From Candidatus Peribacteraceae bacterium (GTDB lineage Bacteria; Patescibacteriota; Gracilibacteria; Peribacterales; Peribacteraceae): DNA of 64,000 nt. Location of the stretch: the NCBI GenBank assembly GCA_028707875.1, contig JAQWAC010000001.1, positions 13,829-77,828 on the forward strand, written 5' to 3'. Positions within the stretch are counted from its first letter, which is position 1; each line of letters opens with the position of its first letter. Below are positions 8,567 through 42,207 of this stretch, in pieces. Below the pieces are notes generated by a model. That model was given only the letters and a program-made list of their open reading frames with translations. It did not search any database and had not been told where the DNA came from. Made by a program: the position numbers and the translations under genes.

Positions 8567-8567
8567 A

Positions 8568-9079: not shown

Positions 9080-9080
9080 A

Positions 9081-9130
9081 GCCCTTCGGCTTCATTGGCT
9101 TCTTCGGCATCTTCGGCATCTTCGGCTTCC
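9081..9130. repeat. right arm of the inverted repeat flanking the four-helix-bundle gene
   Basis: Its reverse complement, GGAAGCCGAAGATGCCGAAGATGCCGAAGAAGCCAATGAAGCCGAAGGGC, aligns with 8568-8607. It ends at the ychF stop codon. Confidence 0.65.
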
Positions 9131-11522: not shown

Positions 11523-11526
11523 TTCA

Positions 11527-11928
11527 ATGGATGCCGAGAATAATCCGTCGGCAGCCAGTCGCCTTCATGACGTATTTCACAATGCTTCATGTGATATTTC
11601 GGTGAAGTGCGCCGTTTACAAAACTCTGGCGGATCTGGTCTGGCTTCTTGTGATGCTTTACGACCGTGACTATCCCGATTGTCCCTGTACGACGTATAAC
11701 GTCGTCGGATTATCCCCCAAATTCCATCGACTGGTGGGGAGTACCTACCCCTCCTTTGAAATGTCCTATCTGGATTCCTATCTTCACTCAAAAGGAACGC
11801 AGCGCGATGACGTCATGCGAAGAGTGGACCATGATGTGGATGTCATTGAGCAACGTTGCATCGATGTTCTGGAAGGTCGTACAACGCTGGATCGGCTGGA
11901 GTGCATGCTCGATCAAGACGGAGCGTAA
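11527..11928 (+). CDS. hypothetical Cys-rich protein
   Basis: ORF starts 5 nt after the sortase stop and is followed by a strong terminator. No family recognised. Confidence 0.55.
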   Translation: MDAENNPSAASRLHDVFHNASCDISVKCAVYKTLADLVWLLVMLYDRDYPDCPCTTYNVVGLSPKFHRLVGSTYPSFEMSYLDSYLHSKGTQRDDVMRRVDHDVDVIEQRCIDVLEGRTTLDRLECMLDQDGA

Positions 11929-11955
11929 AAAAAGAGCGGGTTGCCCGCTCTTTTT
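11929..11955. terminator. bidirectional rho-independent terminator
   Basis: AAAAAAA-GAGCGGG-TTG-CCCGCTC-TTTTT between convergent genes. Confidence 0.8.
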
Positions 11956-11978
11956 GCATGAACATTTGTGTGAATGTA

Positions 11979-12347
11979 TTACTGGTTTTCGGCTTCCTCA
12001 AGGTCCTGCACAACGTTATTGAGCTCATTGAGCAGACAACGCGAGCGGCGCAGGGCACTCTGGCCCGGGCAGTACATCTGGATGATCTCGGGGGCCGCGG
12101 TGTGGGTGTCGATCGGGTTGCCGATACGCTGCGTGCGCCACTCGTAGTTCGGACGTGGCTGACCTTCGTCTTCGATGCCGAGCATCTTCGCCGCATTCAC
12201 GCTGCGGGGATTGCGGTAGACGGTATCGGCGCGGGCGACGAGCATCGCGCTCCATTCATTGTATTGTGAGGCTGCGGCACCGAGCAGCAGTCCCACGAGA
12301 ATCCCGCCGAGGAAGGCGAGGAGGGTGACTTGATGGCGTTTTGCCAT
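11979..12347 (-). CDS. small membrane-anchored protein, paralog 2 (YRNxRS and YCxGxSxxRRxRCL motifs)
   Basis: N-terminal TM (VTLLAFLGGILVGLLLGAAA). Shares YRNPRS and MYCPGQSALRRSRCLLNELNNV with the upstream paralog. Confidence 0.7.
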   Translation of the reverse strand: MAKRHQVTLLAFLGGILVGLLLGAAASQYNEWSAMLVARADTVYRNPRSVNAAKMLGIEDEGQPRPNYEWRTQRIGNPIDTHTAAPEIIQMYCPGQSALRRSRCLLNELNNVVQDLEEAENQ

Positions 12348-12386
12348 GGGAGAGAGAGGAAAAGAAATAAGAAATGGAGATAATGA

Positions 12387-12758
12387 TCAATTGCCGTTCA
12401 GGCGATAGAGGACGCCATTCAGATACTGGATGAGGCACCGCGTGCGGCGCTGATGCGATGTTCCCGCGCAATAATCGGGAACGGGCGTGATGGACGCCGG
12501 CTCGTGACGGCTGTCCGCAGGTTGATCATCCGCGGAACGGACTCCCGGAATCTCCGCGCTGGTCCCGTGAATCGTTTCATTCTGAATGCTGCGCGAATTT
12601 CTGTATTCGGTTGTATTCGTGCGTGAAACCCCCTGTGCGGCGCCGGGGTTCATACCGGAATAGGCGACTTGTGCGAGCTGTGTGACGCTCGCGGAGACGA
12701 GCGCTCCCGCGACGACACTCGCCATAATCGCCACGAGGAGGTGTGTACGTTTGACCAT
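12387..12758 (-). CDS. small membrane-anchored protein, paralog 1 (YRNxRS and YCxGxSxxRRxRCL motifs)
   Basis: N-terminal TM (LLVAIMASVVAGALVSA), YRNSRS, DYCAGTSHQRRTRCLIQYLNGV. Confidence 0.7.
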   Translation of the reverse strand: MVKRTHLLVAIMASVVAGALVSASVTQLAQVAYSGMNPGAAQGVSRTNTTEYRNSRSIQNETIHGTSAEIPGVRSADDQPADSRHEPASITPVPDYCAGTSHQRRTRCLIQYLNGVLYRLNGN

Positions 12759-12793
12759 AAGAGAGATTGGTATGAATGTAAGAAGACATGGAT

Positions 12794-12831
12794 ATTATAA
12801 CATAAAGTATTAATTTAGTAAAATATGTCAA
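12794..12831 (-). promoter_or_regulatory. candidate minus-strand promoter with extended -10 (TGTTATAAT)
   Basis: The minus strand reads TTGACA (12831-12826), then TTACTA-N16-TGT-TATAAT (-10 at 12799-12794), about 35 nt before the ATG at 12758. Confidence 0.4.
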
Positions 12832-12844
12832 ATATGCAATTTGG

Positions 12845-12899
12845 ACGAAGAAATGAAGCTTGTTAGGTTGTAGCTGGTTAGCTTCTTAGAGTACTTCGT
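12845..12899. repeat. word-periodic imperfect hairpin (GAAG/AGCT words), element C; likely terminator of the ATPase gene
   Basis: ACGAAG..GAAGCT-loop-AGCTTC..CTTCGT. AT-rich spacer downstream of the ATPase-1 stop. Confidence 0.45.
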
Positions 12900-12942
12900 A
12901 AAAGATAAGAAGCAAGGAAGCTTAAGAAGCTCTCAGCCGAAA

Positions 12943-15423
12943 TTATCCGATTCTCCGCAGGATCTCTCTGTTGACGAACTCCTTTTGCCTTCCGTATGTC
13001 AGGCGTGACAGTTGCTTAAAGGCTTCGGACGCCTGCGGATCTTTGGCGTAGGTGGTTTCCAGCCACGGACGCGGGACTTCGATGGTGAAGGGGCGGGAGG
13101 GTTTGCCGTCGATGCAGAGCTTCATGGATCCCTTGAAGGCATCCATATTCACGAGATCCTGTTCCGAGAAGACCGGTGCCATTTCCTTGGCACAGACTTC
13201 CGCATCCTGCGGACCGATTTTGTAGAACATCATCGTTCCGATGTTGCCGAAGATCGCACCCTTCAGGCTCGTCTTGCCGGAGAGTTTGTCGTCCTTCTCC
13301 AACTGGTCGATATACTGGTGAGCGAGGATGAGGCCCAGACGGTATTTGCGTGCCTCGGAGAGGATGGATTCGATCGATTCCGTGATGAAGTTCTGGAACT
13401 CGTCGATGTAGAGGAAGAAGTCCCTGCGCTTGCTGTTGTCCTGCTGCTGGCGGCGCATGGCGGCCACCTGAATCTTGTTCACGAACATCATGCCCAGCAG
13501 TTGCGAGTTGATGTCGCCGATGAGACCTTTGCTGAGGTTTGCAAGCAGAATCTTGCCCGAGTTCATCACCTCCGAAATATCGAAGGCGCTCTTGGTCTGC
13601 CCCACGATGTTGCGGATGAGCGTGTTGGTCGTGAATTGTCCGAACTTGGCGGCGAAGTAGGGGATCATCTCCTGCTTCTCCCTCTGGCCTGTCATGGTCA
13701 TCTGCTTCTCCCAGAAGGAGCGGACGATGGGATTCTTCACGCGGGAGACCTTGTATTTCTGCCACTCCTCGTCGGTGAAGAGCTTCACGAGGTCGGTGAT
13801 CGCGCCGCCCTCCTCTTCGTCGTCCATGAGCGTCAGACAGCCGTTGCGGAAGTAGTCCTGAATGCGCGGGCCGAAGACTTCGTTGCCGAACATCTTCACC
13901 ATCATGTTCATCGCATCGAGGGCGATGAGGTCTTTTTCCTCCGGCGTCTTTCCTTCCAGAAGGTTCAGGCCCATGGGGCGCTCGGTATCCGCCGGATTGA
14001 AGTAGATCACGTCATCGGCACGCTCACGCGGAATGTAGGGCAGAAGGTCTTCGATGAGCGAACCGTGCGGATCCACGACGCACATGCCTTTGCCCTGATG
14101 GAAGTCCTGCCGCGCCATGATCTGGAGAATCGAGGATTTGCCCGTACCCGTTTGTCCGATGATGTAGAAGTGGCGGAAACGGTCCTCGTTCTTCATGAAG
14201 ATCTTGCGCTTTTCGCCGCGATAACTGTTGATGCCGAGGAAGAGTCCCTCTTCGGGGATATCCTTCGGGGAAGTCGCAATCTTAAAGTTCTGCCACTTGA
14301 TTGTTTCCACTTTGTTGTATTTGGTGTTCGGCAGATGGAAGAAGCTCGTGAGTTCGCTCGCACCCAACAGCATCTTTGGCGAGGCGATCGCCTGGAGGAG
14401 GGAACGTCTGGGACTGCGCCGGATGAAACGTTCGACGATGGTCCGCTGGTTCACGAAGTGAGGTTTCCGGAAGCTGTTTCCACGCACGTCATCGAACTGC
14501 GCGAATGCGGCGAGGACGGTCTCCAGCAGAATCTTCGAGCGCGCCTGCGTCTCCGCGGACGTCACGATGCGCACGACGCAGTGGAAGCCGGGACTGCCTG
14601 CCTTCTCATCCACGGCTTTGCTGTACTCCTCAGCCATCTGCGAGACCCGTTCGCCGGTGGATTGATTCTCCTGCTGCGGGGTGAGATCGCTGCCCGGAAG
14701 AAACATGCTTGCGACGGCGCCGAGCCAGGTGAGGGGATTCAGGAAACTTCCGTGCTTCTTCTTCGGATTGATCAGACGGATGGCCTCGTCCTGCAGTTTC
14801 TTCTGCCAGCCTCCATCGGCGGGGGTGAGGACGAACTGGATCGCAGCACCTTCGGAGATTTTCAGTTTCGAGAATGCATTGGTGATGGTGTTGAGCGGAT
14901 CGCTCTTGAGTTGCTGATAGGTCCGGAAGACGGACGTGAAGGGTTTCTTCGGGAGAACAACCTGTGCGGAGACCACGGAGGTGTCCGTGAAAATGTTGTA
15001 GTCCTCGACTTCATCGATGATGGTATCCGGATAGAAGGAGGTGAATTGCTTCTCGATCAGATGTGCGACCTTCCGCGGGCAGACGACGAAGAAAAGAATT
15101 TCGCCTGCGAGTGCGGCGTACTCCATCGAGAAGAACGGATGCCCTTTCCAGAAGCGGTCGAAATCGGACGAATGAAGGCTGTGGAGGGACTGATAGAGGT
15201 GATCCATGACTCCGAGCACTTCCTTGAAATCCTGCCCGGTGGAGAACTTTTCCGACTCTCTCTCCTTATCCTCCTTGCTCTCCTTCTTCGGCACCAGCAG
15301 TTGCAGGAAGACGAGGTCCTGCTCGCGTTTGAGATCCGCGCGAAATCTCAGAAACCAGAGGATTCCCCAGCCGAGTGCGGCGGCTGCAAGAATGCCGATG
15401 AGCAGGAGGACGAAGTCCATCAC
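12943..15423 (-). CDS. membrane-anchored VirD4/TraD/TrwB-like P-loop ATPase (T4SS coupling-protein-like), paralog 1
   Basis: N-terminal TM, an uncharacterised ~400-aa middle region, Walker A (HFYIIGQTGTGKSS), VVDPHGSLIEDLL, Walker B (FFLYIDEFQNF), AHQYIDQL. Full-length paralog of 38661-41330. Confidence 0.8.
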   Translation of the reverse strand: MMDFVLLLIGILAAAALGWGILWFLRFRADLKREQDLVFLQLLVPKKESKEDKERESEKFSTGQDFKEVLGVMDHLYQSLHSLHSSDFDRFWKGHPFFSMEYAALAGEILFFVVCPRKVAHLIEKQFTSFYPDTIIDEVEDYNIFTDTSVVSAQVVLPKKPFTSVFRTYQQLKSDPLNTITNAFSKLKISEGAAIQFVLTPADGGWQKKLQDEAIRLINPKKKHGSFLNPLTWLGAVASMFLPGSDLTPQQENQSTGERVSQMAEEYSKAVDEKAGSPGFHCVVRIVTSAETQARSKILLETVLAAFAQFDDVRGNSFRKPHFVNQRTIVERFIRRSPRRSLLQAIASPKMLLGASELTSFFHLPNTKYNKVETIKWQNFKIATSPKDIPEEGLFLGINSYRGEKRKIFMKNEDRFRHFYIIGQTGTGKSSILQIMARQDFHQGKGMCVVDPHGSLIEDLLPYIPRERADDVIYFNPADTERPMGLNLLEGKTPEEKDLIALDAMNMMVKMFGNEVFGPRIQDYFRNGCLTLMDDEEEGGAITDLVKLFTDEEWQKYKVSRVKNPIVRSFWEKQMTMTGQREKQEMIPYFAAKFGQFTTNTLIRNIVGQTKSAFDISEVMNSGKILLANLSKGLIGDINSQLLGMMFVNKIQVAAMRRQQQDNSKRRDFFLYIDEFQNFITESIESILSEARKYRLGLILAHQYIDQLEKDDKLSGKTSLKGAIFGNIGTMMFYKIGPQDAEVCAKEMAPVFSEQDLVNMDAFKGSMKLCIDGKPSRPFTIEVPRPWLETTYAKDPQASEAFKQLSRLTYGRQKEFVNREILRRIG

Positions 15424-15659: not shown

Positions 15660-16052
15660 TTATTTGTTCCACATCTCCCTCGCCTTCATCAGCGTCATCA
15701 CCTTGTCGAGCAGCGTCTTGATCGTCATTTCGCTCTTGATGAAAAAGTCATCGGCTCCAAGCTCAATGCTGCGTTCCTTATTCTTGGTATCTCCGAAGTT
15801 CGTGAGGACGATCACCGGGAACTTCCGCTGCTCGCGCGGGAAGCGTTCCAGAACACCGAAACCGTCGAGAATCGGCATGTTCAGGTCCAGAATGAGGAGG
15901 TCCGGAACCTGCTTTGTGATCTCGTCGATCGCCTCCTGTCCGTTCTTCACCGTACGCAGCTGAAAGCCCGCAAGCGAGAACTTCTTCACATAGACGTCCC
16001 GGAGGACGGCATCGTCTTCGGCGATAATGATGTTGGCTTGGGCGGGCATCAA
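15660..16052 (-). CDS. stand-alone response regulator receiver domain (CheY-like)
   Basis: IIIAEDD, LLILDLNMP (phospho-acceptor Asp), VLTNFGD, FFIKS. No output domain. Confidence 0.85.
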   Translation of the reverse strand: MMPAQANIIIAEDDAVLRDVYVKKFSLAGFQLRTVKNGQEAIDEITKQVPDLLILDLNMPILDGFGVLERFPREQRKFPVIVLTNFGDTKNKERSIELGADDFFIKSEMTIKTLLDKVMTLMKAREMWNK

Positions 16053-30965: not shown

Positions 30966-30990
30966 TGAAAAAGAATAACCAATGATGGAG

Positions 30991-31105
30991 TGGGGCGAGC
31001 GAAGGGTTTCGAACCCTCGATCCCGCGTCTGCGGGAGCCACAACTTGGCGTTTATTATTCATTCGCCACAGCATACTGCGGCGTGGCCAACTGAGCTACG
31101 CCCAC
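30991..31105 (-). pseudogene. degenerate 115-nt tRNA-His-like copy
   Basis: Its 3' terminal 30 nt (T-arm, acceptor, CCA) are identical to the tRNA-His, as are 17 nt of the 5' acceptor/D region. It keeps the TTGTGGC loop string, but the D-stem and anticodon-stem partners are missing and about 37 extra nt are inserted. No G-1. Confidence 0.5.
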
Positions 31106-31129
31106 AGGTATATGTAATTGAATTGATAG

Positions 31130-31207
31130 TGGGGCGAGCGAAGGGTTTCGAACCCTCGACCTCCAGGGCCACAACCTGGCGCTCTAACCAACTGAGCTAC
31201 GCCCGCC
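31130..31207 (-). tRNA. tRNA-His (GUG) with encoded G-1 and CCA
   Basis: GGCGGGCG-TA-GCTC-AGTTGGTTA-GAGC-G-CCAGG-TTGTGGC-CCTGG-AGGTC-GAGGG-TTCGAAA-CCCTT-CGCTCGC-C-CCA folds as a cloverleaf. G-1 pairs with C73. Confidence 0.9.
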
Positions 31208-31253
31208 ACGTGAAAGGCATGGTACTGAGAGTGGGCACCGAATTCCAGTGAGC

Positions 31254-33563
31254 TTATGCCGATTTCTTCCGATCATCGGAGATATTGTCCGCGCGAATGA
31301 TCGCGATGGTGCTGTCCGTCGCCTCGCCTGTCGGTGCCGGAGGTGTGACAGGAGATTTTCCGGGGTGTGTTTCCGACTTCGCGGGTGCGGCGGGTGCCGG
31401 CGGTTTCGGTACAGCAGGCTCGGCGATCGCCTGTTCCTCACGGATCATTTCCTGTTCCAGATCATCGGCTTCCGATTCCGCGGATTTTTGTGCGGTATCG
31501 GTTGCAGAGGGTGCGGCGGATCCCGCCGCTTTTTCCTCCTGTTCGCGCTTTCGCTTGTTCGTCTTGTAGCGTTGTCGCTTCTTCTTTCTGCGCTCCCTCT
31601 CCTCGGGCGAAATTTCCTGTACCGGAGATTGAGTCTGGGACGGAGTAGGAACAGCCGGTGATGCGGTGATTGCAGAAACCGGTGACGGTTCCGAAGGAGG
31701 CAACGAAGATTGCGCCGGAGGCGCACCGGCCGGTTCGGGCGGGTTCGCGGGTTTCACAACTTGTGGCGGGGCGACCGGCTCGGGAGCCGGAGTCATGGCG
31801 GCGATCACCGGCGGCGGGGGAGGGGCAGTCGGTTCCTGAACGGGCTCCGGAGACGGGTGAGGAGCGGATGCCTGTGCAAGCCAGGGGGGAATGGAAGCAT
31901 CATTGTCGGACGAAGAAGCAGCAGGGGGAGGAATCGATTCTGTGGCCGTCATCGATGTATTTCCCGACGGAGGAGTGGAAGGCGGAGGAGGGGGCGGTGA
32001 CGAAGGCGTCTCTTCCTGCAGCGTCGGGGGAGGAGGTGTGGTGAATGTGTGTCCGGAACGCGTCGCTTCCTCATGCGCCTGTTTGAGCCAACTGGGAGCC
32101 TGGTTTTCATCAAATTGCAGGGTCGATGGCGGTTCAACGGACGAAATCTCTTCCACCTTCGGCACCTCCTCCGCAGGCGCTCTCTCCGCCTTGGGCGTCC
32201 TTCGCACGGGGGCCTCTTCTTCACGCATTGCGGAGACATCGATCACCGGCATCGGAGGCGCATGATCGAGTGACGAAGACTTTCGCTCTCCGGACGCGGT
32301 GCGGCTCTTCTGCGGTGTGGTGGGGGTTTTGTCCGTATCGAGATTGCGCTTCACGATTCGTGCGATGATGAACATCGCCATGAATCCGAGAATCAGGGAG
32401 GCGATCACCACGAGCAGAATCACGCCGATGGTTCCCCACATTCCGCTTGGAACACCCGTTGCGGCTACGCTTGATTGAGCCGAGGATGCGGCGGAGGAAG
32501 ATGAGACGGACGAAGCGGATTGTCCCGAGGAGGAGGCACTGCCCGTTTCCCCCGAGAGAACAGATGTGACTTGAAGGGCGCCGCCGGTATCAAGAACGTT
32601 TTGTGCCGTCTTCAGATCCCGCACCGTGAGTCGCACGGTGTAGGAGTTGTTTTTCGAGAAGGTGTGCATCGGACGGTCGAGCATGCTCTGCCGTCCGTCC
32701 CCGAAGTCCCAGAGGAAGAGGAGTGCGCGCCCGGATGCGGTGAGTGCGTTTTCTTTCAGGGAGAAACCGAAGACGCCATTCCCGCGGTCATCGACGGCAA
32801 TGAGAGGGGTGCCACCCGAATTCGGAAGCGAGGGGGTGGAATCGGGACGGGGAACCGTGACGGCGGCGGTCGTGACACGCAGCGTCTGTGCGGTCGTTCC
32901 CTGCGCCCCCATGCTCATGATGGTGATCGTTCTGTCCGTGGAGAATTCCGGGAACCAGATCCGGAGAGGTGTTCCGTCGGTGAGGAAGAACGTTCCTTCG
33001 TCATCCGTATCGTTGGAGGGATTTCCGTCCCGATTGTTGTCGATGGTATGGTCCAGATCGAGCGAGAGGCGTGCGGTGCCCGGAGAGAGTGGTGAGAGGA
33101 GAATCGTCTGCTGGTTTCCCAGAACAACATTGTTTCCTTCCTCGACGGGCGGGTCGGTCCGGACTATCGGCGTCCCCGTCATGATGCCTGGTGTCGAGGG
33201 AAGCGGAAGAGCCGCGGAACTCACGTGAATGAAAAATGTGCGCACCAGCATCGCCGGAGACGCGGCGTTTCCCACTTCGGCTTTCAGCGAGAAATTGCCC
33301 GTTTCGACGAACCGTTCATGGAAGATCCGTCCCCGGTCCGCCTGCACGAATGAGCCGTCCTCCTTCAGGAGCGTCCAGGAAACGGATGAATCCGTGCCGG
33401 GCAGAGCTGCGAGGATCTCGAAAATGGAACCGACGCTGAGGGTGATGTCCTCTGTCGTGCTTGTCGAAGCGGCGGAAGCGCCACCTGCAAAGAATGTCGT
33501 GAAGAGCAGCCCGGCGAGAATGACGGGAAGGGGGAGCCGATGGCGAAGGCGCGAGAAAATCAT
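31254..33563 (-). CDS. single-pass membrane protein: extracellular PKD/Ig-like domains, Ser-rich linker, TM, long Pro-rich plus Lys/Arg/Glu-rich tail
   Basis: Signal peptide MIFSRLRHRLPLPVILAGLL. PKD signature LWDFGDG...YTVRLTV. TM WGTIGVILLVVIASLILGFMAMFII. Tail has PPPPPP runs and EERERRKKKRQRYKTNKRKRE. An alternative GTG start at 33587 overlaps the upstream pilin stop (GTGA). Confidence 0.8.
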   Translation of the reverse strand: MIFSRLRHRLPLPVILAGLLFTTFFAGGASAASTSTTEDITLSVGSIFEILAALPGTDSSVSWTLLKEDGSFVQADRGRIFHERFVETGNFSLKAEVGNAASPAMLVRTFFIHVSSAALPLPSTPGIMTGTPIVRTDPPVEEGNNVVLGNQQTILLSPLSPGTARLSLDLDHTIDNNRDGNPSNDTDDEGTFFLTDGTPLRIWFPEFSTDRTITIMSMGAQGTTAQTLRVTTAAVTVPRPDSTPSLPNSGGTPLIAVDDRGNGVFGFSLKENALTASGRALLFLWDFGDGRQSMLDRPMHTFSKNNSYTVRLTVRDLKTAQNVLDTGGALQVTSVLSGETGSASSSGQSASSVSSSSAASSAQSSVAATGVPSGMWGTIGVILLVVIASLILGFMAMFIIARIVKRNLDTDKTPTTPQKSRTASGERKSSSLDHAPPMPVIDVSAMREEEAPVRRTPKAERAPAEEVPKVEEISSVEPPSTLQFDENQAPSWLKQAHEEATRSGHTFTTPPPPTLQEETPSSPPPPPPSTPPSGNTSMTATESIPPPAASSSDNDASIPPWLAQASAPHPSPEPVQEPTAPPPPPVIAAMTPAPEPVAPPQVVKPANPPEPAGAPPAQSSLPPSEPSPVSAITASPAVPTPSQTQSPVQEISPEERERRKKKRQRYKTNKRKREQEEKAAGSAAPSATDTAQKSAESEADDLEQEMIREEQAIAEPAVPKPPAPAAPAKSETHPGKSPVTPPAPTGEATDSTIAIIRADNISDDRKKSA

Positions 33564-33583
33564 GGGAAAGGACCGGTTCCCGG

Positions 33584-33928
33584 TCACTTGATGCTGAGCA
33601 CGAAGTTCACAATGGCCGATGCGAGCATGATCACGAGGAGGCCGACAATGGTATAGATAATCATCTTCTTTCCCGTTTGCTTCACCTGCTCGTTTCCGAC
33701 GATGATGGCGATACCTGCGAAGATGATCATGGCGACGGCAAGAATCGCCACGAATGTCAGGACTTTCTGGACGATATTGATGATGGTTGTCTTGAGGTTG
33801 TCGCCGCTTCCACCGACTTGTATTCCGCCCGCATCACCGATGCTGATCGCAGCGAGGGCGATGCGCGGGATAAATACGAGGGTGAATGCGCAGAGGCGCA
33901 ACCAGGCGTGATGGAAAAAGTGTCTCAT
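33584..33928 (-). CDS. TrbC/VirB2-like T4SS pilin family protein, paralog C
   Basis: Signal peptide, short exposed segment, two TM helices. IINIVQKVLTFVAILAVAMIIFAG...KKMIIYTIVGLLVIMLASAIV. Confidence 0.75.
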   Translation of the reverse strand: MRHFFHHAWLRLCAFTLVFIPRIALAAISIGDAGGIQVGGSGDNLKTTIINIVQKVLTFVAILAVAMIIFAGIAIIVGNEQVKQTGKKMIIYTIVGLLVIMLASAIVNFVLSIK

Positions 33929-33932
33929 ATAG

Positions 33933-34283
33933 TTATGAAACGAAGGAGAGAACAAGGGCGACGATTGCTTTGGAAAGCAGGATGATGAGGAGGCCGATCA
34001 CAGTATAGATGATCATCTTCTTCGCCTTTTCCTTGGAGCTTTCATCGTACGATCCCACGATCATCCAGACACCGGCGAAGATGATCATGGCAACGGCAAG
34101 CAGAGCCACATACGTGAGGACCGTATTGACGATCTTGGTGATGGATGCTTTCAAATCCCCGCCGCCCCCCACATTGATCTCCCCCGCACCTCCGAGCGTC
34201 GACGCTGCAGCGACGCGTGGAACGGTTATGAGCGTCAGTGCGCAAAGACGTGCCCACATTCGGGAGGAAAACACCTTCTTCAT
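33933..34283 (-). CDS. TrbC/VirB2-like T4SS pilin family protein, paralog B
   Basis: ITKIVNTVLTYVALLAVAMIIFAG...KKMIIYTVIGLLIILLSKAIV. Start at MKKVFSS (34283). Confidence 0.75.
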   Translation of the reverse strand: MKKVFSSRMWARLCALTLITVPRVAAASTLGGAGEINVGGGGDLKASITKIVNTVLTYVALLAVAMIIFAGVWMIVGSYDESSKEKAKKMIIYTVIGLLIILLSKAIVALVLSFVS

Positions 34284-34284
34284 G

Positions 34285-34689
34285 TTATTCGGCAAAGGAA
34301 ATAAAGAGGGAGACGATTCCTTTTGAGAGGAGAATGATGAGAAGTCCGATACCGGTATACAAGATGACCTTCTTGGCCGTTTCTTTCGCCTGGTCATTGC
34401 CGAAGCTGACGATCATATAGAAGCCGGCAAAGATAATGACACTCACGGCGATGATGGCGACGTAACTCAGGACCGTGTTCACAATTTTCCCGATCACCGC
34501 ACGGGGGCTCCCGCTTTTCACTCCCTGGATGTTTTCTCCCGCATTGATTCCAGCTTCCAATCCTCCGCTGTACACGGCGGCGGAGAGATGTTCGAATTCC
34601 GGCGCGACCTGAACGGCCGAGAACGCGAGCGCCGCGATGAAAAACATGACGGAGAGCAATGATCGCATGGGAGATGAGGTGGTTGTCAT
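34285..34689 (-). CDS. TrbC/VirB2-like T4SS pilin family protein, paralog A
   Basis: IGKIVNTVLSYVAIIAVSVIIFAG...KKVILYTGIGLLIILLSKGIV. Confidence 0.75.
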   Translation of the reverse strand: MTTTSSPMRSLLSVMFFIAALAFSAVQVAPEFEHLSAAVYSGGLEAGINAGENIQGVKSGSPRAVIGKIVNTVLSYVAIIAVSVIIFAGFYMIVSFGNDQAKETAKKVILYTGIGLLIILLSKGIVSLFISFAE

Positions 34690-34751
34690 GGAGTGTTGGT
34701 ATTTCGCTAGTATGATAGCATAAAACGCGTTTCCTCGCTACTCTTTGCTGC

Positions 34752-35759
34752 ATGCGTCCGATTCAGCCAAAAACGGCCTTGAGACGGGCAGACAACCTGT
34801 CTGCATTATTGATAACAAACCTCATCAATATTCGTTACCTCACGGGGGTCGATGTGAGTGCGGGGGCCATGCTCGTGACGCCGCGCAGCTGGCGCCTCTT
34901 TGTGGATGCCCGGTATGGGGAAATGGCGCAATCCCACATTCGAACGGGAATAAAAGTGGAAGAGCGGGAATTATTGGCACGATTTCTTGAGTCCGTTCCT
35001 CTGTGCGGTTGCGAGGAGGAGACGGTGACGCTTGCGCAATATAGGCGATGGAAGAAGAATTTTAAGAACACAAAATTTGTTCAATTATCCGGAATGATTG
35101 AGGACTTCCGGCGATCCAAAGACACGGAGGAGCTCAGAAAGTTCAGAAGGGCCCAAAAGATCACGCAACAAATGCTCACGAGAGTTCCCGCAGTGCTTCG
35201 ACCGGGAATCACGGAGCGTGCTCTTGCCTGGAAACTGACGGAGTGGGCGCACGAACTCAAGGCCGACGGACTCGCATTTGAGCCCATTGTCGCCTTCGGG
35301 CCCCACACGAGTCGTCCGCATCATCATGCGACTGATCGGGAATACAGGGAGGGCGATCTTGTGCAGGTGGATACCGGTGCGCGTTTCGGCGGCTACTGCG
35401 CGGATCAGAGCAGGGTGTTTTTTACGGGACCGAAAACTTCCGAGCAGGCGCATGTGTTTCAAGCGGTCGAGGAAGCGAAGGATGCAGCGACAAAAATGGT
35501 GCGTGCGGGGGTCGGGACGCACGAGCTCGATCGAGTCGCGCGCGCGGTGTTGAAGAAACACGGGCTTGAAAAGTATTTTGTGCACTCGCTCGGGCACGGC
35601 GTCGGTCTGGAAATCCATGAGGGGGTGACTTTGAGTCAGAAGCGCCCGAACGAAAAACTTCTGAAAAACGAAATCATCACCATCGAGCCGGGCGTGTATC
35701 TCCCGGGGAAATTCGGGATGCGTCTCGAAGATGAGATTGTGGTGGAGAAAGAAGGTTAA
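34752..35759 (+). CDS. Xaa-Pro aminopeptidase (M24 family)
   Basis: DLVQVDTGARFGGYCADQSR, HSLGHGVGLEIHE, IEPGVY, RLEDEIVV. Confidence 0.9.
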   Translation: MRPIQPKTALRRADNLSALLITNLINIRYLTGVDVSAGAMLVTPRSWRLFVDARYGEMAQSHIRTGIKVEERELLARFLESVPLCGCEEETVTLAQYRRWKKNFKNTKFVQLSGMIEDFRRSKDTEELRKFRRAQKITQQMLTRVPAVLRPGITERALAWKLTEWAHELKADGLAFEPIVAFGPHTSRPHHHATDREYREGDLVQVDTGARFGGYCADQSRVFFTGPKTSEQAHVFQAVEEAKDAATKMVRAGVGTHELDRVARAVLKKHGLEKYFVHSLGHGVGLEIHEGVTLSQKRPNEKLLKNEIITIEPGVYLPGKFGMRLEDEIVVEKEG

Positions 35760-35865
35760 TCCTCATGATAAAGCCAAGAACAGTAGTGTTAAAAATTCTT
35801 TTCCATGTACTGTAAGAGAATAAAGAGGTTCTTGCCTGAAGGAGACCGGCATCGGTATTCATGCT

Positions 35866-37287
35866 ATGATGACCGGAAAAATGCACATCCACAGAACACC
35901 TCTCCATCGGCCGTGCCGCGCTCCGGTCCCTCTGCACATTCGCGTCCTTCTCGTTCTGATTTCCGTGTTCGCTCCCGTGATGGCGGTGGGCGTGAGTAAG
36001 AATGCGGCCCATGAGCAGGAATTTATCATCACGGCGTACTATTCGCCGGTTCCCGGTCAGTGTTGTTATGTCATGGGCGGTCTGCAGGCGGACAAAGTAT
36101 TGAACGGAAACGGAGTCCGCGGCGCCGACGGGACCGAAGTGCATCCGGGCATGATCGCGGCACCCGCGAGCTACGCATTCGGCACGGTTGTCGTGTTACC
36201 GGGAGTCGGACGCTTCACGGTTCACGACCGCGGCGGGGCGATTCAGGAACTCGATTCGGGCGCGCATCGTCTGGATATCTGGGTGGGCTACGGCGAAGAA
36301 GGATTGGCGCGCGCCCTCGCGTTCGGCGTGCAGCATATCCGCGGGACGGTCTATCCCGTCGGGGGCAATCAGCCGAAGGAGAAGTTTGTGATGGAGAATC
36401 TTCCGGCAGTCATCGCGCGTCTGCGACCGTTCCAAGTTGCCGGGAATTCCCTGCTTTCGGTGACGCCGCGGAGCGGAGAACAAGGTCTCTCCGTTGAGCT
36501 TCTGCAACGTTCCTTGAAGGATGCGGGGTACTTCTCCCAGCGCGTCACCGGAAAATTCGGATCGACGACAGCGGAAGCTCTGCGTGCATTCAACGATGCA
36601 TTCGGTCTCTCGAATGAACCGTCGGATCGTCTTTCGGAGAAGAGTGCCGCCACACTCACGGCCGCGGTGCAACGCATCGCCGCCCGCCCTCCGGTGCAGA
36701 AAGCCGTTGATAAAACCGCATCGGCCCAGGCGATACGCTCCGCCCAGAGGACACTCCGGTTCCTCGGCTTCTACAGCGGACGAACCAACGGTACCTATGA
36801 TGACAATCTGTTTGACGCCATTCTTCGATTCCAGCAGAAGAAAGGTCTTGTCGGGTCGGCGGAGAATGCCGGAGCGGGACGTATCGGTCCGCTCACGCGC
36901 GGCAAGCTCACCGAATCATGGGACAGAAGGATTGTCGCTGCGATGGCCCGGCGTCTTCTGGCACTGCATCGCGTGGAAACGGTGCTCGATGAACGCGGAA
37001 AAAACGTCGCACGTTTTCTCGAAACGGGTGACAATGGCGATCAGGTGGCGCTTCTCCAGCGTCTCCTCTCCGATCGCGGATTCTTCCCGTCGGAAAAAAT
37101 CAACGGGAATTACGGTGCACTCACACAGTCGGCCGTCCTGAAATATCAGATGGCCCGCAAACTCATCACATCCGAGAGCGATGCGGGTGCGGGGCAGGTG
37201 GGGCCGCTGACGCTCAGAGCACTTCGTTCCGAGGAGCGCAAAGAGTTGTATTTGCTCGTGCGCAGTGAAGGATGGAGGGCGCTATAG
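35866..37287 (+). CDS. secreted 3D-domain (MltA-like barrel) protein with three peptidoglycan-binding (PG_binding_1-like) repeats
   Basis: ITAYYSPVPGQ...GADGTEVHPGMIAAP...HDRGGAI...LDIWVG, then three repeats of the type GDxGxxVxxLQxxLxxxGxxxxxxxGxxGxxTxxAV. Confidence 0.8.
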   Translation: MMTGKMHIHRTPLHRPCRAPVPLHIRVLLVLISVFAPVMAVGVSKNAAHEQEFIITAYYSPVPGQCCYVMGGLQADKVLNGNGVRGADGTEVHPGMIAAPASYAFGTVVVLPGVGRFTVHDRGGAIQELDSGAHRLDIWVGYGEEGLARALAFGVQHIRGTVYPVGGNQPKEKFVMENLPAVIARLRPFQVAGNSLLSVTPRSGEQGLSVELLQRSLKDAGYFSQRVTGKFGSTTAEALRAFNDAFGLSNEPSDRLSEKSAATLTAAVQRIAARPPVQKAVDKTASAQAIRSAQRTLRFLGFYSGRTNGTYDDNLFDAILRFQQKKGLVGSAENAGAGRIGPLTRGKLTESWDRRIVAAMARRLLALHRVETVLDERGKNVARFLETGDNGDQVALLQRLLSDRGFFPSEKINGNYGALTQSAVLKYQMARKLITSESDAGAGQVGPLTLRALRSEERKELYLLVRSEGWRAL

Positions 37288-37357
37288 GGGGCAGGATGAG
37301 GGGGGAGGACGTAGGTCAATTGCTCTTTGGTCATGATATCGGCAAGATGCCCTGGCC

Positions 37358-38398
37358 ATGCAGAAGTTCATTCTGACACTCCTCGTATTTACCGTGTGCG
37401 TTCCTGCGGTTTCCGCCGCGGAAAATGTCTCACGTCGTGACGGATTTCTTCTCCTTTGGGAGGGGATTGCCCGCAGTGCGGATGAGACGAGGGAGAAGCC
37501 GTTCACCGACGTTCCGGGAGGGTCGGGGGGCTTTACGGAAATCACGTACGCCAAAGCACGCGGACTCATCGATGACGGAGAGAGTTTTCGTCCGGAGGAT
37601 TCTCTGACACTCGGCGACGCTCTGCTCTGGCTTTTCAGAACACGAAATGTCGATGATATCGACGCCATGACGCCGGAATCGCTTCCGACACTGCTCGGCA
37701 ACTATCCGATTGCGGGTCAGGATGCGGAAACGGACGAACCGGTTGGAACTTCGGAAAAACTGCTTGCCTTAGCGAATAAACTGGACACGATGCTCGCGGA
37801 GGAGGTGCATGAAGTGAGTCTGTATTCGGAGAAGTTCCACGGGAAGGGGACGGCCTTCGGCGAGTCGTTCGACATGTACGCACTCACTGCGGCACATCGC
37901 ACCTTCCCCGCGAACACTCTCGTGAAGGTGACGAATGTGGAGAACGGCAAGAGCGTCATTGTGCGCATCAATGACCGCGGCCCGTACGTGGAAGGTCGCG
38001 ATATGGATCTGAGTCTGGCGGCCTTCACGATGATCGCACCGCGCGGACAGGGAGTCGCACGGGCCCGCTTCCAGCGACTCGGGGATGCATCTCTCGTGGA
38101 TGCCTGCACGGGGGAGACGCGTCGCTATCAGAAACGCATCACGCGTGACGTGCGTTTTCATCGCGGAGTGCCGTGGAAATCCGCCATCGGCGAACCGCTC
38201 GTGCTCGGGGCCAATCGTCCGTTCGTCGTTCGCGATGTCACCTATCCGGACGGGACCGTTGAGTGGTTTGAGGATTGGATCCTTCCCGAGGAGGCCTTCA
38301 CGTTGACCGCTTCCATCCCGGGAATCTACACATTCCGTTTCTCAAACGGAACGGGGCATACACGCAAAATGCAGATGGAGATGTGGCAGTGTCGATAA
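37358..38398 (+). CDS. RlpA-like double-psi beta-barrel lytic transglycosylase with N-terminal SLH-like segment
   Basis: YSEKFHGKGTAFGESFD, TAAHRTFPANTLVKVTNVENGKSVIVRINDRGPY. Signal peptide present. Confidence 0.8.
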   Translation: MQKFILTLLVFTVCVPAVSAAENVSRRDGFLLLWEGIARSADETREKPFTDVPGGSGGFTEITYAKARGLIDDGESFRPEDSLTLGDALLWLFRTRNVDDIDAMTPESLPTLLGNYPIAGQDAETDEPVGTSEKLLALANKLDTMLAEEVHEVSLYSEKFHGKGTAFGESFDMYALTAAHRTFPANTLVKVTNVENGKSVIVRINDRGPYVEGRDMDLSLAAFTMIAPRGQGVARARFQRLGDASLVDACTGETRRYQKRITRDVRFHRGVPWKSAIGEPLVLGANRPFVVRDVTYPDGTVEWFEDWILPEEAFTLTASIPGIYTFRFSNGTGHTRKMQMEMWQCR

Positions 38399-38505
38399 CG
38401 CGGAAGGGCAACTTGCGGTTTCTCTCCCGCGAACCCTGGTTCGTCTGTGCTCACCACGGTCTTTTTCCTTATAGGAGTCGCTTCAGGCAGTCCCGAGCCT
38501 GACGA

Positions 38506-38533
38506 GGGCTGCCTTCGCGAGGCAGTCTTTTTG
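38506..38533 (+). terminator. rho-independent terminator after the RlpA-like gene
   Basis: GGGCTGCC-TTCGCGA-GGCAGTC-TTTTT. An upstream duplicate GGCAGTC (38486-38492) can pair with the same 5' strand. Confidence 0.55.
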
Positions 38534-38660
38534 AAGAATTATACAAATGATTCACAGATCGATTGTTTATTTGCAGAGCAATGCCGATTTGTACACGGGG
38601 GGAAATAATAGATCAAAACCACAATAAATAAATGTATCAAGTTGCCACTACGGGCGTCCG

Positions 38661-41330
38661 ATGCCCAAATCTGCTATAATTATTCGAATTCTTCTCTATC
38701 CTTTTGATCGAACCCATTTGATTCCATTCCTCGACATCGCATTCTGGCCTCTCCTCTGGATCGCTGCCGCAGCGATCGGCACTGCGACAGTGCCGGATTT
38801 CTGGGGATCCGTCGGGGGATGGTATATGTCCGCGCCACTGCGGAACACCGGCATCATTATTCTTACGTATCTCGTGTGGAAGTGGTGTAAGTGGAACTTT
38901 CGCTATGTCTACGCTGTCTACCGGTCGCGAACACTCGTGACGATGAAGATTCTTCTTCCGCGTTCGGATTCCAAGATTGATCAGGAAAAAAGGACGGAGA
39001 AGGACTTCAAGGAGAAAGTGGCCGCCATGGAGCAGTTATACCGTGCACTCTGGGAAGTACAGAGCCTCACCTTCTGGCAGGAACTGCATTACTGGTTCTT
39101 TCAGTACCTCACGATCAGTCTGGAGCTCTATGTGGAGAAGAACCAGCTCATGCTCTACGTCGTCACACAACCGAGTCTCGTCTCCGTCGTGGAGAAGCAG
39201 ATTACCGCCTTCTATCCTGCGGCGGAGGTGACCAATCATCCGACGCCCAATCTCTGGCCGAAGGGACTCAAGTTCATCGGATACAACATGATTCCCGGAA
39301 AATCCTTCATGTACCCGATCCGGAGTTATGAGCACATGCAGGACGATCCGCTGAACGGCATTGCAAACGTTCTCAGTAAAATGGAGGAGGGGGAGACGGC
39401 GGGGGTCCAGATTGTGCTTTCGCCGTCTTCTGAAAAAAAGTGGGGCAGGCGCACGAAGCACTTCGCATCCGAAAAATTCAAGGGGAAGAGCGAGAATATG
39501 TTCAGTCATATTCCGATTCTCGGATCGCTTCTGACAGTGCTCGGAGGGGTGGCGACGGGGACCGAAGGCTCATCGTTCGCTCCCGGCGCGACCAAAGGCG
39601 ATTCATTTGTCCGCATGATTCAGCCTGAGGAGGAGCTCTACAAGCGCATGGGCGAGAAGGCCGGCATGAGTTACTTCTTCGCTTCCGTGCGCATCGCCGC
39701 CGCCGCCAAGACGTGGAAGCGCACGTTTGAGATCACGAACAACCTTCAGGTCGCATTCAACGCCTTCAAAGATGTCTACGGCAACTACTTCCAGAATCGA
39801 CGCATGTTCGTGGATTTCTTCCCGCTCTCACTCAATGCGCCGATCATTTACTCGCTCTGGAAGCAGCGCATCAATGGATTCTGGCATCGGCGTTCTCTTC
39901 TGGTTGAGAAGGAACTGGCGGCCCTCTACCACTTCCCGGACAGCCGCTACAACAAGATGCCGATCATCGAGTGGATCACCTATCGCGTCCTTCCGCCGCC
40001 GCCCAATGTGCCCGCCGAAGGCATTGTCATCGGTGTCAGCAAATTCCGCGCGCAGGAAACGAAGATCCGTTTCATGGATACGGATCGCACGCGTCACCAT
40101 TACATCATCGGAAAATCCGGAACGGGAAAATCCGCGCTGCTCTCATGGATGAGCCGTCAGGACATCGCCCACGGCGACGGCGTGTGCATGGTCGATCCGC
40201 ACGGAGACCTCATCGAGGATGCGCTCGCCCATACGCCCAAAGAGCGTGCGAAGGAGATCGTGCTCTTCGATCCGGCGGACGGCGAGCGGCCGATGGGTCT
40301 GAATCTTCTGGAGGCCAAGACGCCCGAGGAGAAGGATCGCGCCGCCATCGATGCGATGGAAATCTTCATCAAGCTCTTCGGAAACGAAATCTTCGGTCCG
40401 CGCATTCAGCACTACTTCCGCAACGGTTGTCTGACGCTCATGGACGACGAGGAGGAAGGTGCGACGCTTATCGATGTGCCGAGGCTGTTCGTGGACGACG
40501 AGTTCCAGCACTTCAAGGTCGCCAAGTGCAAGAATCCCGTGGTGCGGAGCTTCTGGGAGCACGAGATCGCCAAGACCGGTGCACGCGAAAAAGAGGAGAT
40601 GATCCCGTACTTCTCCGCGAAGTTCGGGCCCTTCATCACGAATACGACGATGCGCAACATCATCGGACAGCCGAAGAGCGCCTTCAACATCCGCGAGATT
40701 ATGGACACGGGCAAGGTGCTCCTCGTGAACCTCTCCAAGGGGAAGATCGGCGATGTCAACGCGCAGCTTCTCGGCCTCATCTTCGTGAACAAGGTGAACA
40801 TGGCCGCGCTCTCCCGCGCCGATGTCCCGCGCGAGAAGCGTCGCCGCTTCTACCTGTATGTCGACGAATTCCAGAACTTCGTGACGGATGCCTTCGCCAC
40901 GATCCTGTCGGAGGCACGCAAGTACGAACTCGGTCTGATCATGGCGCACCAGTACATCGGGCAGCTCGTGGGGAAAACGGAGTCGTACGGTCAGGCGAGT
41001 ACCAAAATGCGCGATGCGGTCTTCGGTAACGTCGGCACGATCTCCAGCTTCAAGATCGGCGCGGAGGACGCCGAGTACATGGCCAAGGAATACGCGCCGG
41101 ATCTCTCCGAACAGGACGTCATCGGCATCCCGAACTTCAATTGCTACGTGAAGCTTTCCATCAACAACGTCCCCTCGCGTCCCTTCAGTATGGCGACGAT
41201 CTGGGACGAGTCGGACCGCAACGAGGAGCTCGGGGCACTGATCAAGGAATACAGCCGCATGAAGTACGGCAGGAAGAAGGTCTTCGTCGATCAGGAAATT
41301 GAGGATCGCATCGGGATCGTGAGAGGTTGA
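38661..41330 (+). CDS. membrane-anchored VirD4/TraD/TrwB-like P-loop ATPase (T4SS coupling-protein-like), paralog 2
   Basis: Several N-terminal TM segments, Walker A (HHYIIGKSGTGKSA), MVDPHGDLIEDAL, Walker B (FYLYVDEFQNF), AHQYIGQL. In the 81-aa Walker-A stretch I aligned by hand, 53 positions are identical to paralog 1. Confidence 0.8.
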   Translation: MPKSAIIIRILLYPFDRTHLIPFLDIAFWPLLWIAAAAIGTATVPDFWGSVGGWYMSAPLRNTGIIILTYLVWKWCKWNFRYVYAVYRSRTLVTMKILLPRSDSKIDQEKRTEKDFKEKVAAMEQLYRALWEVQSLTFWQELHYWFFQYLTISLELYVEKNQLMLYVVTQPSLVSVVEKQITAFYPAAEVTNHPTPNLWPKGLKFIGYNMIPGKSFMYPIRSYEHMQDDPLNGIANVLSKMEEGETAGVQIVLSPSSEKKWGRRTKHFASEKFKGKSENMFSHIPILGSLLTVLGGVATGTEGSSFAPGATKGDSFVRMIQPEEELYKRMGEKAGMSYFFASVRIAAAAKTWKRTFEITNNLQVAFNAFKDVYGNYFQNRRMFVDFFPLSLNAPIIYSLWKQRINGFWHRRSLLVEKELAALYHFPDSRYNKMPIIEWITYRVLPPPPNVPAEGIVIGVSKFRAQETKIRFMDTDRTRHHYIIGKSGTGKSALLSWMSRQDIAHGDGVCMVDPHGDLIEDALAHTPKERAKEIVLFDPADGERPMGLNLLEAKTPEEKDRAAIDAMEIFIKLFGNEIFGPRIQHYFRNGCLTLMDDEEEGATLIDVPRLFVDDEFQHFKVAKCKNPVVRSFWEHEIAKTGAREKEEMIPYFSAKFGPFITNTTMRNIIGQPKSAFNIREIMDTGKVLLVNLSKGKIGDVNAQLLGLIFVNKVNMAALSRADVPREKRRRFYLYVDEFQNFVTDAFATILSEARKYELGLIMAHQYIGQLVGKTESYGQASTKMRDAVFGNVGTISSFKIGAEDAEYMAKEYAPDLSEQDVIGIPNFNCYVKLSINNVPSRPFSMATIWDESDRNEELGALIKEYSRMKYGRKKVFVDQEIEDRIGIVRG

Positions 41331-41373
41331 TACTCCTGTTGCGTCCATTCTCTTCTGCAGGGACAATTTCCCC

Positions 41374-42207
41374 ATGTCATGGGGTCTCGTCCTCTCCGGC
41401 GGAGCCGCGTTCGGGATTGCGAACGGAGGAGTGATCGAAGTGCTGGAGCGCGAGAAGCTCAAGCCGGATTGCGTTGCAGGCAGCAGCATGGGGGCGATCA
41501 TCGCGGCGACGTATGCGATGGGGATTCCGGTTTCGGAACTTCATGCATGTGTACGCAAGCTGACGTTGGGCAATGTTGCGTGCTTGAGCAAACATCCGCT
41601 GAAAGGAGGCTTATGTGGCGGGATTCTCCGTCAAAATCTGGAGCATCACCTCGAACCGCTCCTCGGAGATGCACGAATTGCGGATTGCAAAATTCCGTTT
41701 GTCTGCACGGCCGGTCGGGTCAAAAAACCCATTCAATGGCTTCATATCCTGAAGAAAGGATTTACGGAGGAGATCCTTTCCGGAGTGGAGTTCCACGTGT
41801 TCTCTCCGGAAACACGCCTCCTCGATGCGGTGATGGCATCGAGTGCCATTCCGGTGGTGTTTTCGCCCGTGGAGATCGACGGAAAACAGTATGTGGATCT
41901 CTGCCACTTCGGCCCCATTCCCGCGAGAGCGCTTCAGTCGAAGTGCCATCCTGAGAAAATTATTGCGACGGACACCTATCCCACATACGAGGCTTTGCGG
42001 AATTTCCTGCCCGGAGGCTGGAATGAATTTCTGGAGGCGGGTTATGCGGAGATCAGGAAGAGCAAAGCGGTGTGTGATCTCCTCATCAAACCTGTCATGC
42101 CTTTCGCCCTGTTCCGTTTCGACAAAGGCGAGGAATTCTGGCAGGCGGGCAAAAAAGCGGCCGCAAAATGCATTGCGGATGTGCGTGCGATCATTCAAAG
42201 ACAGTGA
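41374..42207 (+). CDS. patatin-like phospholipase
   Basis: LSGGAAFGIANGGV glycine-rich loop and the GSSMG (GxSxG) nucleophile motif. Confidence 0.8.
   Translation: MSWGLVLSGGAAFGIANGGVIEVLEREKLKPDCVAGSSMGAIIAATYAMGIPVSELHACVRKLTLGNVACLSKHPLKGGLCGGILRQNLEHHLEPLLGDARIADCKIPFVCTAGRVKKPIQWLHILKKGFTEEILSGVEFHVFSPETRLLDAVMASSAIPVVFSPVEIDGKQYVDLCHFGPIPARALQSKCHPEKIIATDTYPTYEALRNFLPGGWNEFLEAGYAEIRKSKAVCDLLIKPVMPFALFRFDKGEEFWQAGKKAAAKCIADVRAIIQRQ

Follow-up and report, generated by a model that had tools for sequence, protein, structure and literature searches.

VirB2-like pilins and two DUF8128 ATPases as putative scattered components of a type IV secretion-like surface apparatus in a Candidatus Peribacteraceae chromosome

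We analyzed a 64-kb stretch of chromosome from Candidatus Peribacteraceae (Peregrinibacteria, within the candidate phyla radiation (CPR)/Patescibacteria; class Gracilibacteria in GTDB), hereafter called the window, which covers ~5% of a genome of ~1.1 to 1.4 Mb. The window encodes an operon of three VirB2-like pilins and a membrane protein with a PKD domain, two putative cell-wall enzymes, and two paralogous ATPases whose motor domain resembles that of type IV secretion system (T4SS) coupling proteins. We lean toward reading these genes as scattered components of a Patescibacteria-type, nonconjugative T4SS-like surface apparatus, and not as a self-contained minimal machine, a view that we hold with little more than even confidence. 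The window agrees with a T4SS of the Patescibacteria type in having a VirB2-like pilin array, a monoderm CPR host, a chromosomal location, and no relaxase. New in this analysis are the size of the ATPase family, the GyrB-like conservation of the ATPases, and the predicted fold of their DUF8128 domain, which is like that of the VirB4 N-terminal domain.

Results

The pilin-PKD operon

Genes were identified from an open reading frame (ORF) listing combined with Pfam and NCBIfam scans of the large ORFs of the window (Table 1). The initial annotation had proposed three pilins and a PKD protein on the minus strand, and the Pfam matches confirmed all four, with new coordinates for pilin 3; the ORF at 34394 to 34753 was rejected as the third pilin. 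All three pilins scored 32.5 to 36.6 bits against a Pfam gathering score of 26.6, which makes them members of the VirB2/TrbC pilin group, and the hydrophobic hairpin is evident in the pilin translation. Pilin 2 also weakly matches the Mbov_0395 pilin-like conjugal transfer family (E 1.6e-6). The genes run in the order pilin 3, pilin 2, pilin 1, PKD gene, with gaps of 1, 4, and 20 nt. Considering the 1- to 4-nt gaps between the pilin genes, we treat the set as one operon, of which the PKD gene, beginning 20 nt past pilin 1, is the last member. By inspection of its translation, the PKD protein consists of a signal peptide, an extracellular PKD/Ig-like domain, one transmembrane helix, and a Pro-rich tail of ~350 residues, which makes it a candidate for an adhesin or for a surface protein associated with the pilus.

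A pair of "double pilin" membrane proteins of 261 to 298 aa is encoded in other Peribacteria (L082:1-1227, L086:6994-8725, L087:9166-10897, and L088:762-2371; L numbers designate loci from other genomes). Each contains several T4SS_pilin-like hairpins, and the pair has a Bax1-I gene on one side and a pterin-binding gene on the other. In one Peribacteria genome, where such a pair lies near ATPase 2, no VirB4 was found within 10 kb of it; the pair is another isolated T4SS-like islet.

The motor domain of the two ATPases

The two ATPases are 43% identical across their full length and are encoded 23 kb apart. ATPase 1 comprises two predicted transmembrane helices, a soluble cytoplasmic DUF8128 domain of ~370 aa, and a P-loop motor of the TrwB/VirD4 type; the motor contains an all-alpha insert, and its Walker A (GKSGTGKS, residues 484 to 491) and Walker B (DEFQ, residues 735 to 738) motifs are both intact. 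The initial annotation had described a VirD4-like ATPase with a polytopic N-terminus; the TrwB/VirD4-like motor is borne out, while "polytopic" is an overstatement for two helices followed by a long soluble domain. Both ATPases match PF10412 (TrwB_AAD_bind) at 39.6 to 44.1 bits (cut-off, 20.5), the T4SS-DNA_transf match likewise clears its Pfam cut-off, and TrwB is the best sequence match in the PDB (E 5.5e-6, phmmer). In profile comparisons with hhalign, TrwB was matched at 95% probability over 255 columns, versus 5 to 11% for TrwK/VirB4, and a broad profile of the ATPase family matched both TrwB and DotL. Foldseek gave TMt values of 0.62 to 0.68 for the ATPase model against TrwB. On these matches, the C-terminal half of the ATPases is assigned to the coupling-protein family.

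The proteins nonetheless depart from standard type IV coupling proteins (T4CPs). All NCBIfam T4CP models (TraD, CD1115, etc.) missed them, the best scores being 34 to 39 bits against cut-offs of 250 to 650. In a coupling protein of ~500 to 750 aa, the anchor leads directly into the nucleotide-binding domain, whereas here DUF8128 intervenes and the proteins reach 826 to 889 aa. We detected neither a relaxase nor a VirB4 channel partner in the window, in 8 distant loci, or in 80 related loci that carry ATPase 1 orthologues (collected by a scan of GTDB species genomes and compared with the window proteins by tblastn). Thus, the window ATPases share with TrwB, VirD4, and TraD an N-terminal transmembrane anchor, a P-loop motor, an all-alpha insert, and significant sequence and fold similarity, and they differ in the extra 370-residue domain between anchor and motor, in falling far below the NCBIfam T4CP cut-offs, in having no relaxase or oriT partner, and in being core genes with GyrB-like conservation, unlike the TrwB/VirD4/TraD genes of mobile elements.

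The DUF8128 domain

Residues ~85 to 455 correspond to PF26449 (DUF8128) in precomputed annotations, and neither Pfam nor hhalign detected sequence homology between this domain and the VirB4 N-domain. An AlphaFold2 model of the full-length ATPase (pLDDT, 78) had as its top Foldseek matches TrwK/VirB4 of R388, ahead of TrwB, with alignments to TrwK of ~940 columns at a TM-score of 0.30. Since the motor domain alone could explain that score, the N-domain was modeled separately (pLDDT, 70). The 14 best PDB matches of this model were all TrwK/VirB4 chains (E 3e-6 to 1e-3; probability, 0.99 to 1.00; TMq, 0.37 to 0.43); they are its only matches among PDB chains at E < 0.01, and the next are unrelated ferredoxin-like folds at E ≥ 0.02. 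These models suggest that the ATPases pair a VirB4-like N-terminal domain, with their own transmembrane anchor, with a T4CP-like motor.

In length (~830 to 890 aa) and two-domain layout, the window ATPases are also like VirB4 (TrwK of R388). Unlike VirB4, they lack the VirB4 sequence signature, having no match of note to the Pfam or NCBIfam VirB4 profiles (CagE_TrbE_VirB/VirB4); they have transmembrane helices of their own in place of reliance on VirB3, and no VirB3 or VirB6 gene adjoins them. A literature search returned nothing on DUF8128, nor any paper that pairs Peregrinibacteria with VirB4.

Conservation of the ATPases

An exhaustive HMMER search placed at least 5,343 clusters (50% identity; E ≤ 1e-30) in the ATPase family, many of them full-length matches of ~800 to 860 aa and some with long extensions. 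ATPase 1 matches an NCBI entry from a Candidatus Peribacteraceae MAG at 100% identity. Hundreds of its orthologues, 70 to 82% identical, bear Peribacteria or Peregrinibacteria names, and orthologues of ATPase 2 (73 to 86% identical across Peribacteria) lie on the same contigs. Between the window and a Gracilibacteria locus (L080), the ATPase is 57% identical overall, the motor half being clearly more conserved than the N-terminal half, and GyrB of the same genome pair is 63% identical. Conservation near the level of GyrB marks a slowly evolving core gene and not a mobile-element gene; judged by such sequence comparisons, both ATPases belong to the slowly evolving core gene set of the lineage as a whole. 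They were rejected as substitutes for FtsK, which the window encodes in canonical form.

Some relatives differ in setting or coding. One Peribacteria genome has both ATPase paralogs within ~6 kb, with ybaB and yceG between them (L031:10001-12610 and ~15824). The Gracilibacteria orthologue of ATPase 1 at L075:9974-12580 requires code 25 (UGA as Gly) to be intact; under table 11 it breaks into several ORFs. IMG/VR "viral" contigs carry relatives of the ATPase domain at ~30 to 41% identity, most without the DUF8128 N-domain; one relative stands beside M23 peptidase and PLD-like genes (L089:7938-9236), and another, of 1,027 aa, beside an AAA ATPase and a subtilase (L095:1170-4253).

Cell-wall genes on the plus strand

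Two DPBB-type cell-wall proteins are encoded upstream of ATPase 1. The first had been called a 3D-domain/peptidoglycan-binding hydrolase. Its three PG_binding_1 repeats are secure; its N-domain is weakly 3D/DPBB-like, with the 3D domain below threshold (E 0.005; 17.4 bits versus a cut-off of 23.8). The second is RlpA-like, as proposed, and exceeds the NCBIfam cut-off; its N-terminus is weakly SLH-like, and its gene lies 262 nt from ATPase 1. Like VirB1-type lytic transglycosylases, the two are putative peptidoglycan-opening enzymes beside T4SS parts. Unlike VirB1, they have DPBB/RlpA and weak 3D-like folds plus PG_binding_1 in place of SLT or CHAP domains, and they could equally be housekeeping wall enzymes. 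The M24 Xaa-Pro peptidase gene between the pilins and these genes, which was missing from the initial annotation, is probably a housekeeping bystander.

Table 1. Features of the window discussed in the text (E values and bit scores from Pfam or NCBIfam)
Feature	Coordinates	Strand	Evidence or remark
SLH-domain sortase	10335-11522	+	Convergent neighbor of ATPase 2
Small transmembrane + Cys-motif ORF	11979-12347	-	No Pfam match; paralogous to the next
Small transmembrane + Cys-motif ORF	12387-12758	-	No Pfam match
ATPase 2, 826 aa	12943-15423	-	One transmembrane helix, DUF8128, same motor domain as ATPase 1 (Pfam)
Stand-alone response-regulator receiver protein	15660-16052	-	Response_reg E 1e-22; immediately upstream of ATPase 2
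tRNA-His (anticodon GTG)	31130-31206	-	Directly 3' of PKD gene
PKD membrane protein	31254-33563	-	PKD domain E 7e-11; ORF extends to 33587, start at 33563 likelier
VirB2-like pilin 1 (T4SS_pilin/TrbC)	33584-33928	-	PF18895 36.6 bits (cut-off 26.6); TrbC E 4e-6
VirB2-like pilin 2	33933-34283	-	PF18895 32.5 bits
VirB2-like pilin 3	34285-34668	-	PF18895 33.2 bits; coordinates corrected
M24 Xaa-Pro aminopeptidase	34752-35759	+	Peptidase_M24 E 3e-63; between pilins and cell-wall genes
Secreted cell-wall protein, three PG_binding_1 repeats	35866-37287	+	PG_binding_1 E 2e-28
RlpA-family DPBB protein (lytic-transglycosylase-like)	37358-38398	+	TIGR00413 rlpA 116 bits (cut-off 82); DPBB_1 E 1e-21
ATPase 1, 889 aa	38661-41330	+	TrwB_AAD_bind/T4SS-DNA_transf
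Patatin-like phospholipase	41374-42207	+	Patatin E 9e-27; 43 nt downstream of ATPase 1
FtsK, canonical	60908-63166		

Comparison with Patescibacteria T4SSs and search for VirB4

The Patescibacteria T4SSs are described in a recent review as notable newcomers of the T4SS superfamily (2025; PMC12857230). A survey of 3,035 Patescibacteria genomes (Quinonero-Coronel et al. 2025, PMC12102498) reports VirB4 in 2,417 of them, or ~80%, from 18 of 20 classes; this VirB4 forms a clade within the monoderm MPF-FATA class. The survey also counts 5,713 VirD4-like T4CPs in 2,918 genomes, about two per genome, with only 148 near virB4, and VirB2-like pilins in 1,948 assemblies, in arrays of 2 to 11 genes; relaxases are almost absent, and in the class Gracilibacteria, T4SS components are dispersed and VirB6 is undetectable. 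In Southlakia, the T4SS and the pilin array are essential for epibiotic growth, according to a genetic study (Wang et al. 2023, PMC10633639).

The window is like these systems in its CPR host, in the chromosomal location among core genes, in the sequence-divergent VirB2-like pilin arrays of a monoderm, in the lack of a relaxase, in the two VirD4-like ATPase genes away from virB4, and in the nearby cell-wall hydrolases other than canonical VirB1. It differs in lacking VirB4, VirB3, TrsD, and VirB6, in the coupling of its pilins to a PKD membrane protein, and in the VirB4-N-domain-like DUF8128 of its ATPases, a domain that the consulted sections of PMC10633639 and PMC12102498 do not mention. The T4SS-like character of the parts list in the initial annotation thus stands for the VirB2-like pilins and TrwB-like ATPases, with adjacency owing largely to genome collinearity, as set out below. 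Its claim of an "undescribed composition" does not stand, as relaxase-free chromosomal T4SS genes, VirB2-like arrays, and about two VirD4-like genes per genome have been published in these sources.

The initial annotation had also stated that VirB4, VirB6, VirB8, and a relaxase are not in the window, and Pfam scans found none of these families in any large ORF. Among the families listed, Pfam likewise detected no VirB4 in the variable-slot ORFs of the 80 related loci, nor in 57 novel large ORFs from these loci, for which the listing gave the first 25 of 120 families. A screen of 81 novel ORFs of ≥400 aa for Walker A motifs and phmmer similarity to TrwK and TrwB returned only PilB and a likely secretion-type ATPase. 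With no VirB4, VirB6, or VirB8 in the loci seen, it is publications on other CPR classes that connect these genes to a complete T4SS. Absence of VirB4 over 64 kb, such a small fraction of the genome, says nothing about the whole genome.

That small fraction also weighs against the case for a self-contained minimal T4SS, in which VirB4, VirB6, and VirB8 would be lacking genome-wide and the DUF8128 ATPases would be the only motors. Such a system would agree with the absence of any VirB4-type gene from the window and the related and distant loci examined, with the VirB4-like length and two-domain layout of the ATPases, and with the failure to detect VirB6 in Gracilibacteria in PMC12102498. It is difficult to square with the broad distribution of VirB4 and the dispersal of components in Gracilibacteria reported in that survey, or with a motor domain that is T4CP-like, and not VirB4-like, by sequence, and we regard it as unlikely.

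The genomic setting bears on another explanation, in which these genes would be what is left of a conjugative element that integrated beside tRNA-His. The tRNA gene does lie directly downstream of the PKD gene, and relatives of the ATPase domain occur on mobile-element-like IMG/VR contigs. However, no integrase, relaxase, or repeats were seen in the window (Pfam scans for the integrase and relaxase families), and GC content is uniform along it. The other large ORFs of the window are core genes, encoding class II ribonucleotide reductase, YchF, EF-Ts, GlyRS, GyrB, HisRS, YceG, Der, LeuRS, DnaG, sigma-70, an AddA-like helicase, and FtsK. The arrangement is kept among such core genes across dozens of Peribacteria species, its synteny being conserved, and the ATPases are under strong purifying selection. 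We therefore give the remnant hypothesis very little credence, and the proposal that the modules are chromosomal, among core genes, and outside any mobile element holds. An apparently conserved "ORF" at 30982 to 31251 is the tRNA-His read as protein.

Gene order across Peribacteria and in distant relatives

We next compared gene order around the ATPase 1 orthologues, using as denominators the Peribacterales loci with enough flank. The RlpA-like gene is upstream of the ATPase in 60 of 65 loci, usually with a gap of ~60 to 200 nt and with >900 nt in seven loci. Upstream positions are also held by the PG-binding gene (47/53), the M24 peptidase (40/50), a pilin (37/50), and the PKD gene (33/47, at ~28% identity). 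Downstream, the slot between ATPase 1 and YbaB is variable in Peribacteria (L002-L079), ranging from 52 nt to 7.9 kb; it contains patatin and MscL in the window genome (41331 to 42752) and DUF1622, HhH-GPD glycosylase, dCTP deaminase, AbiEii, and HTH_17 genes elsewhere. The patatin had been noted 44 nt downstream of the ATPase. It is present, with a gap of 43 nt, but is not a conserved partner: none of the 80 related loci has a patatin gene in the corresponding slot, and we rejected it as a T4SS effector given that the slot is a variable region.

Co-occurrence of the components in related genomes holds in part. Adjacency of pilin, PKD, cell-wall, and ATPase genes is found within Peribacterales and mostly dissolves in distant relatives, with some recurrences. 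In L103 (12558-14579), a 673-aa secreted protein begins 44 nt after a distant DUF8128 ATPase (34% identical); its central T4SS_pilin-like transmembrane hairpin has a large extracellular domain on either side, which gives the protein the look of a fusion of pilin and adhesin. A PG_binding_4/YkuD enzyme is encoded upstream of the ATPase in L104 and L108, and in L104 a PKD protein is encoded just downstream. These recurrences lend modest independent support to a functional tie of the ATPases to pilin or PKD surface proteins.

Around ATPase 2, all of the genes previously listed at 10335 to 15423 (the paralog, two small Cys-motif proteins, and an SLH-sortase) are present. The SLH-sortase also adjoins ATPase 2 in L082-L084 and is a conserved neighbor with a putative functional link. 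The small Cys proteins, which have an N-terminal transmembrane helix and a common C-terminal motif, C-x8-9-R(T/S)RCL, do not occur between ATPase 2 and the sortase in three of three other Peribacteria (L082-L084); they were rejected as partners and are a genome-specific insertion, not a conserved part. A response regulator is found near ATPase 2 in L082-L084 and directly upstream of the ATPase 1 orthologues in L041, L064, and L076. The gene directly upstream of ATPase 2 in L082-L084 is a PLDc_2 (cardiolipin-synthase/PLD-like) gene (~8240 to 9910), which the window lacks at that position; in L089, too, a PLD-like gene comes after the ATPase relative.

Several observations weigh against assigning these genes to one surface apparatus. 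Among the Peribacterales loci, synteny is about equal for housekeeping genes (M24 upstream of the ATPase, YbaB and YceG downstream of it) and for the pilin, PKD, and cell-wall genes, so that adjacency largely reflects genome collinearity and is weak evidence of function. Distant orthologues mostly stand alone among housekeeping genes: the Gracilibacteria orthologues in L080 and L075 (57 to 58% identity) have gatCA or pyrH/frr on one side and unrelated genes on the other, while the family member in L105 follows a ribosomal-protein operon and that in L107 follows recJ. The RlpA-like gene and ATPase 1 may be transcribed as separate units, to judge from a weak terminator-like hairpin with a T-rich tail that lies between them (38445 to 38459, plus strand). 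No VirB4, VirB6, or VirB8 turned up in the window, in related loci totaling ~1.4 Mb (with redundancy), or in the neighborhoods of eight distant family members. The likeness of the N-domain to VirB4 is structural only, with TM values of ~0.4, a pLDDT of 70, and no sequence-profile signal. As for the literature, PMC12102498 reports that the VirD4-like gene is nonessential in Southlakia and considers exaptation possible. Peregrinibacteria are probably outside that survey, which took its genomes from the "Patescibacteria group" of NCBI, as no Peregrinibacteria or Peribacteria names appear in the accession ranges of its genome table expected to hold them.

Much of this would be expected if the genes were neighbors by collinearity only. 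In that case, the DUF8128 ATPases would have been exapted to a core role (e.g., DNA or protein translocation), the RlpA-like and PG-binding proteins would be ordinary enzymes of wall growth or division, and only the pilin-PKD operon would be T4SS-like. The GyrB-like conservation of the ATPases, the equal synteny of housekeeping genes, the stand-alone orthologues, and the reported abundance of VirD4-like copies, mostly far from virB4 and nonessential in Southlakia, all suit this explanation, as do the membership of RlpA in a septal-ring family and the presence of YceG/MltG and FtsK nearby. It accounts less readily for the T4SS_pilin-domain protein immediately downstream of the family member in L103, for the PKD protein that adjoins a distant ATPase in L104, or for the short gap between the RlpA-like gene and the ATPase in most of the loci keeping the pair; a core role for the ATPases must also contend with the canonical FtsK already present. 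We consider collinearity alone a possible explanation, though one that falls well short of probable.

Discussion

If the window does hold scattered components of a Patescibacteria-type surface apparatus, a working model can be outlined. The ATPases would form hexameric, membrane-anchored rings, with the VirB4-like N-domain between membrane and ring, and would use ATP to extract pilins, to assemble or grow a pilus, or to feed protein or DNA substrates into a channel. The VirB2-like pilins may build a short pilus or a conduit through the wall, with the PKD protein as a surface or adhesive partner, and the RlpA-like and PG-binding proteins could open the peptidoglycan locally as analogues of VirB1. 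The model leaves no part for the patatin, MscL, M24 peptidase, or small Cys proteins, which we take to be bystanders. A bolder extension would be that Peribacteria, and perhaps many CPR lineages, make a VirB2-type pilus without a canonical VirB4, with the ubiquitous DUF8128 ATPases, possibly an evolutionary intermediate between VirB4 and T4CPs, serving as the slowly evolving core motor for pilus biogenesis or for uptake or export at the host interface. We think this improbable.

CPR bacteria rely on other cells, and their only genetically tractable species cannot do without its T4SS-like genes. Scattered T4SS parts of this kind also occur in the Peribacteraceae, a lineage that the published survey appears not to have included. 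As it stands, this extends known biology and reveals no new system. It also indicates that the "VirD4-like" ATPases, present at about two per CPR genome, are not ordinary coupling proteins: they are core genes about as conserved as GyrB, with an extra module resembling the VirB4 N-domain in its predicted fold. These properties could explain why the ATPase genes lie away from virB4, and they could inform the question of how coupling proteins and VirB4 came to differ.

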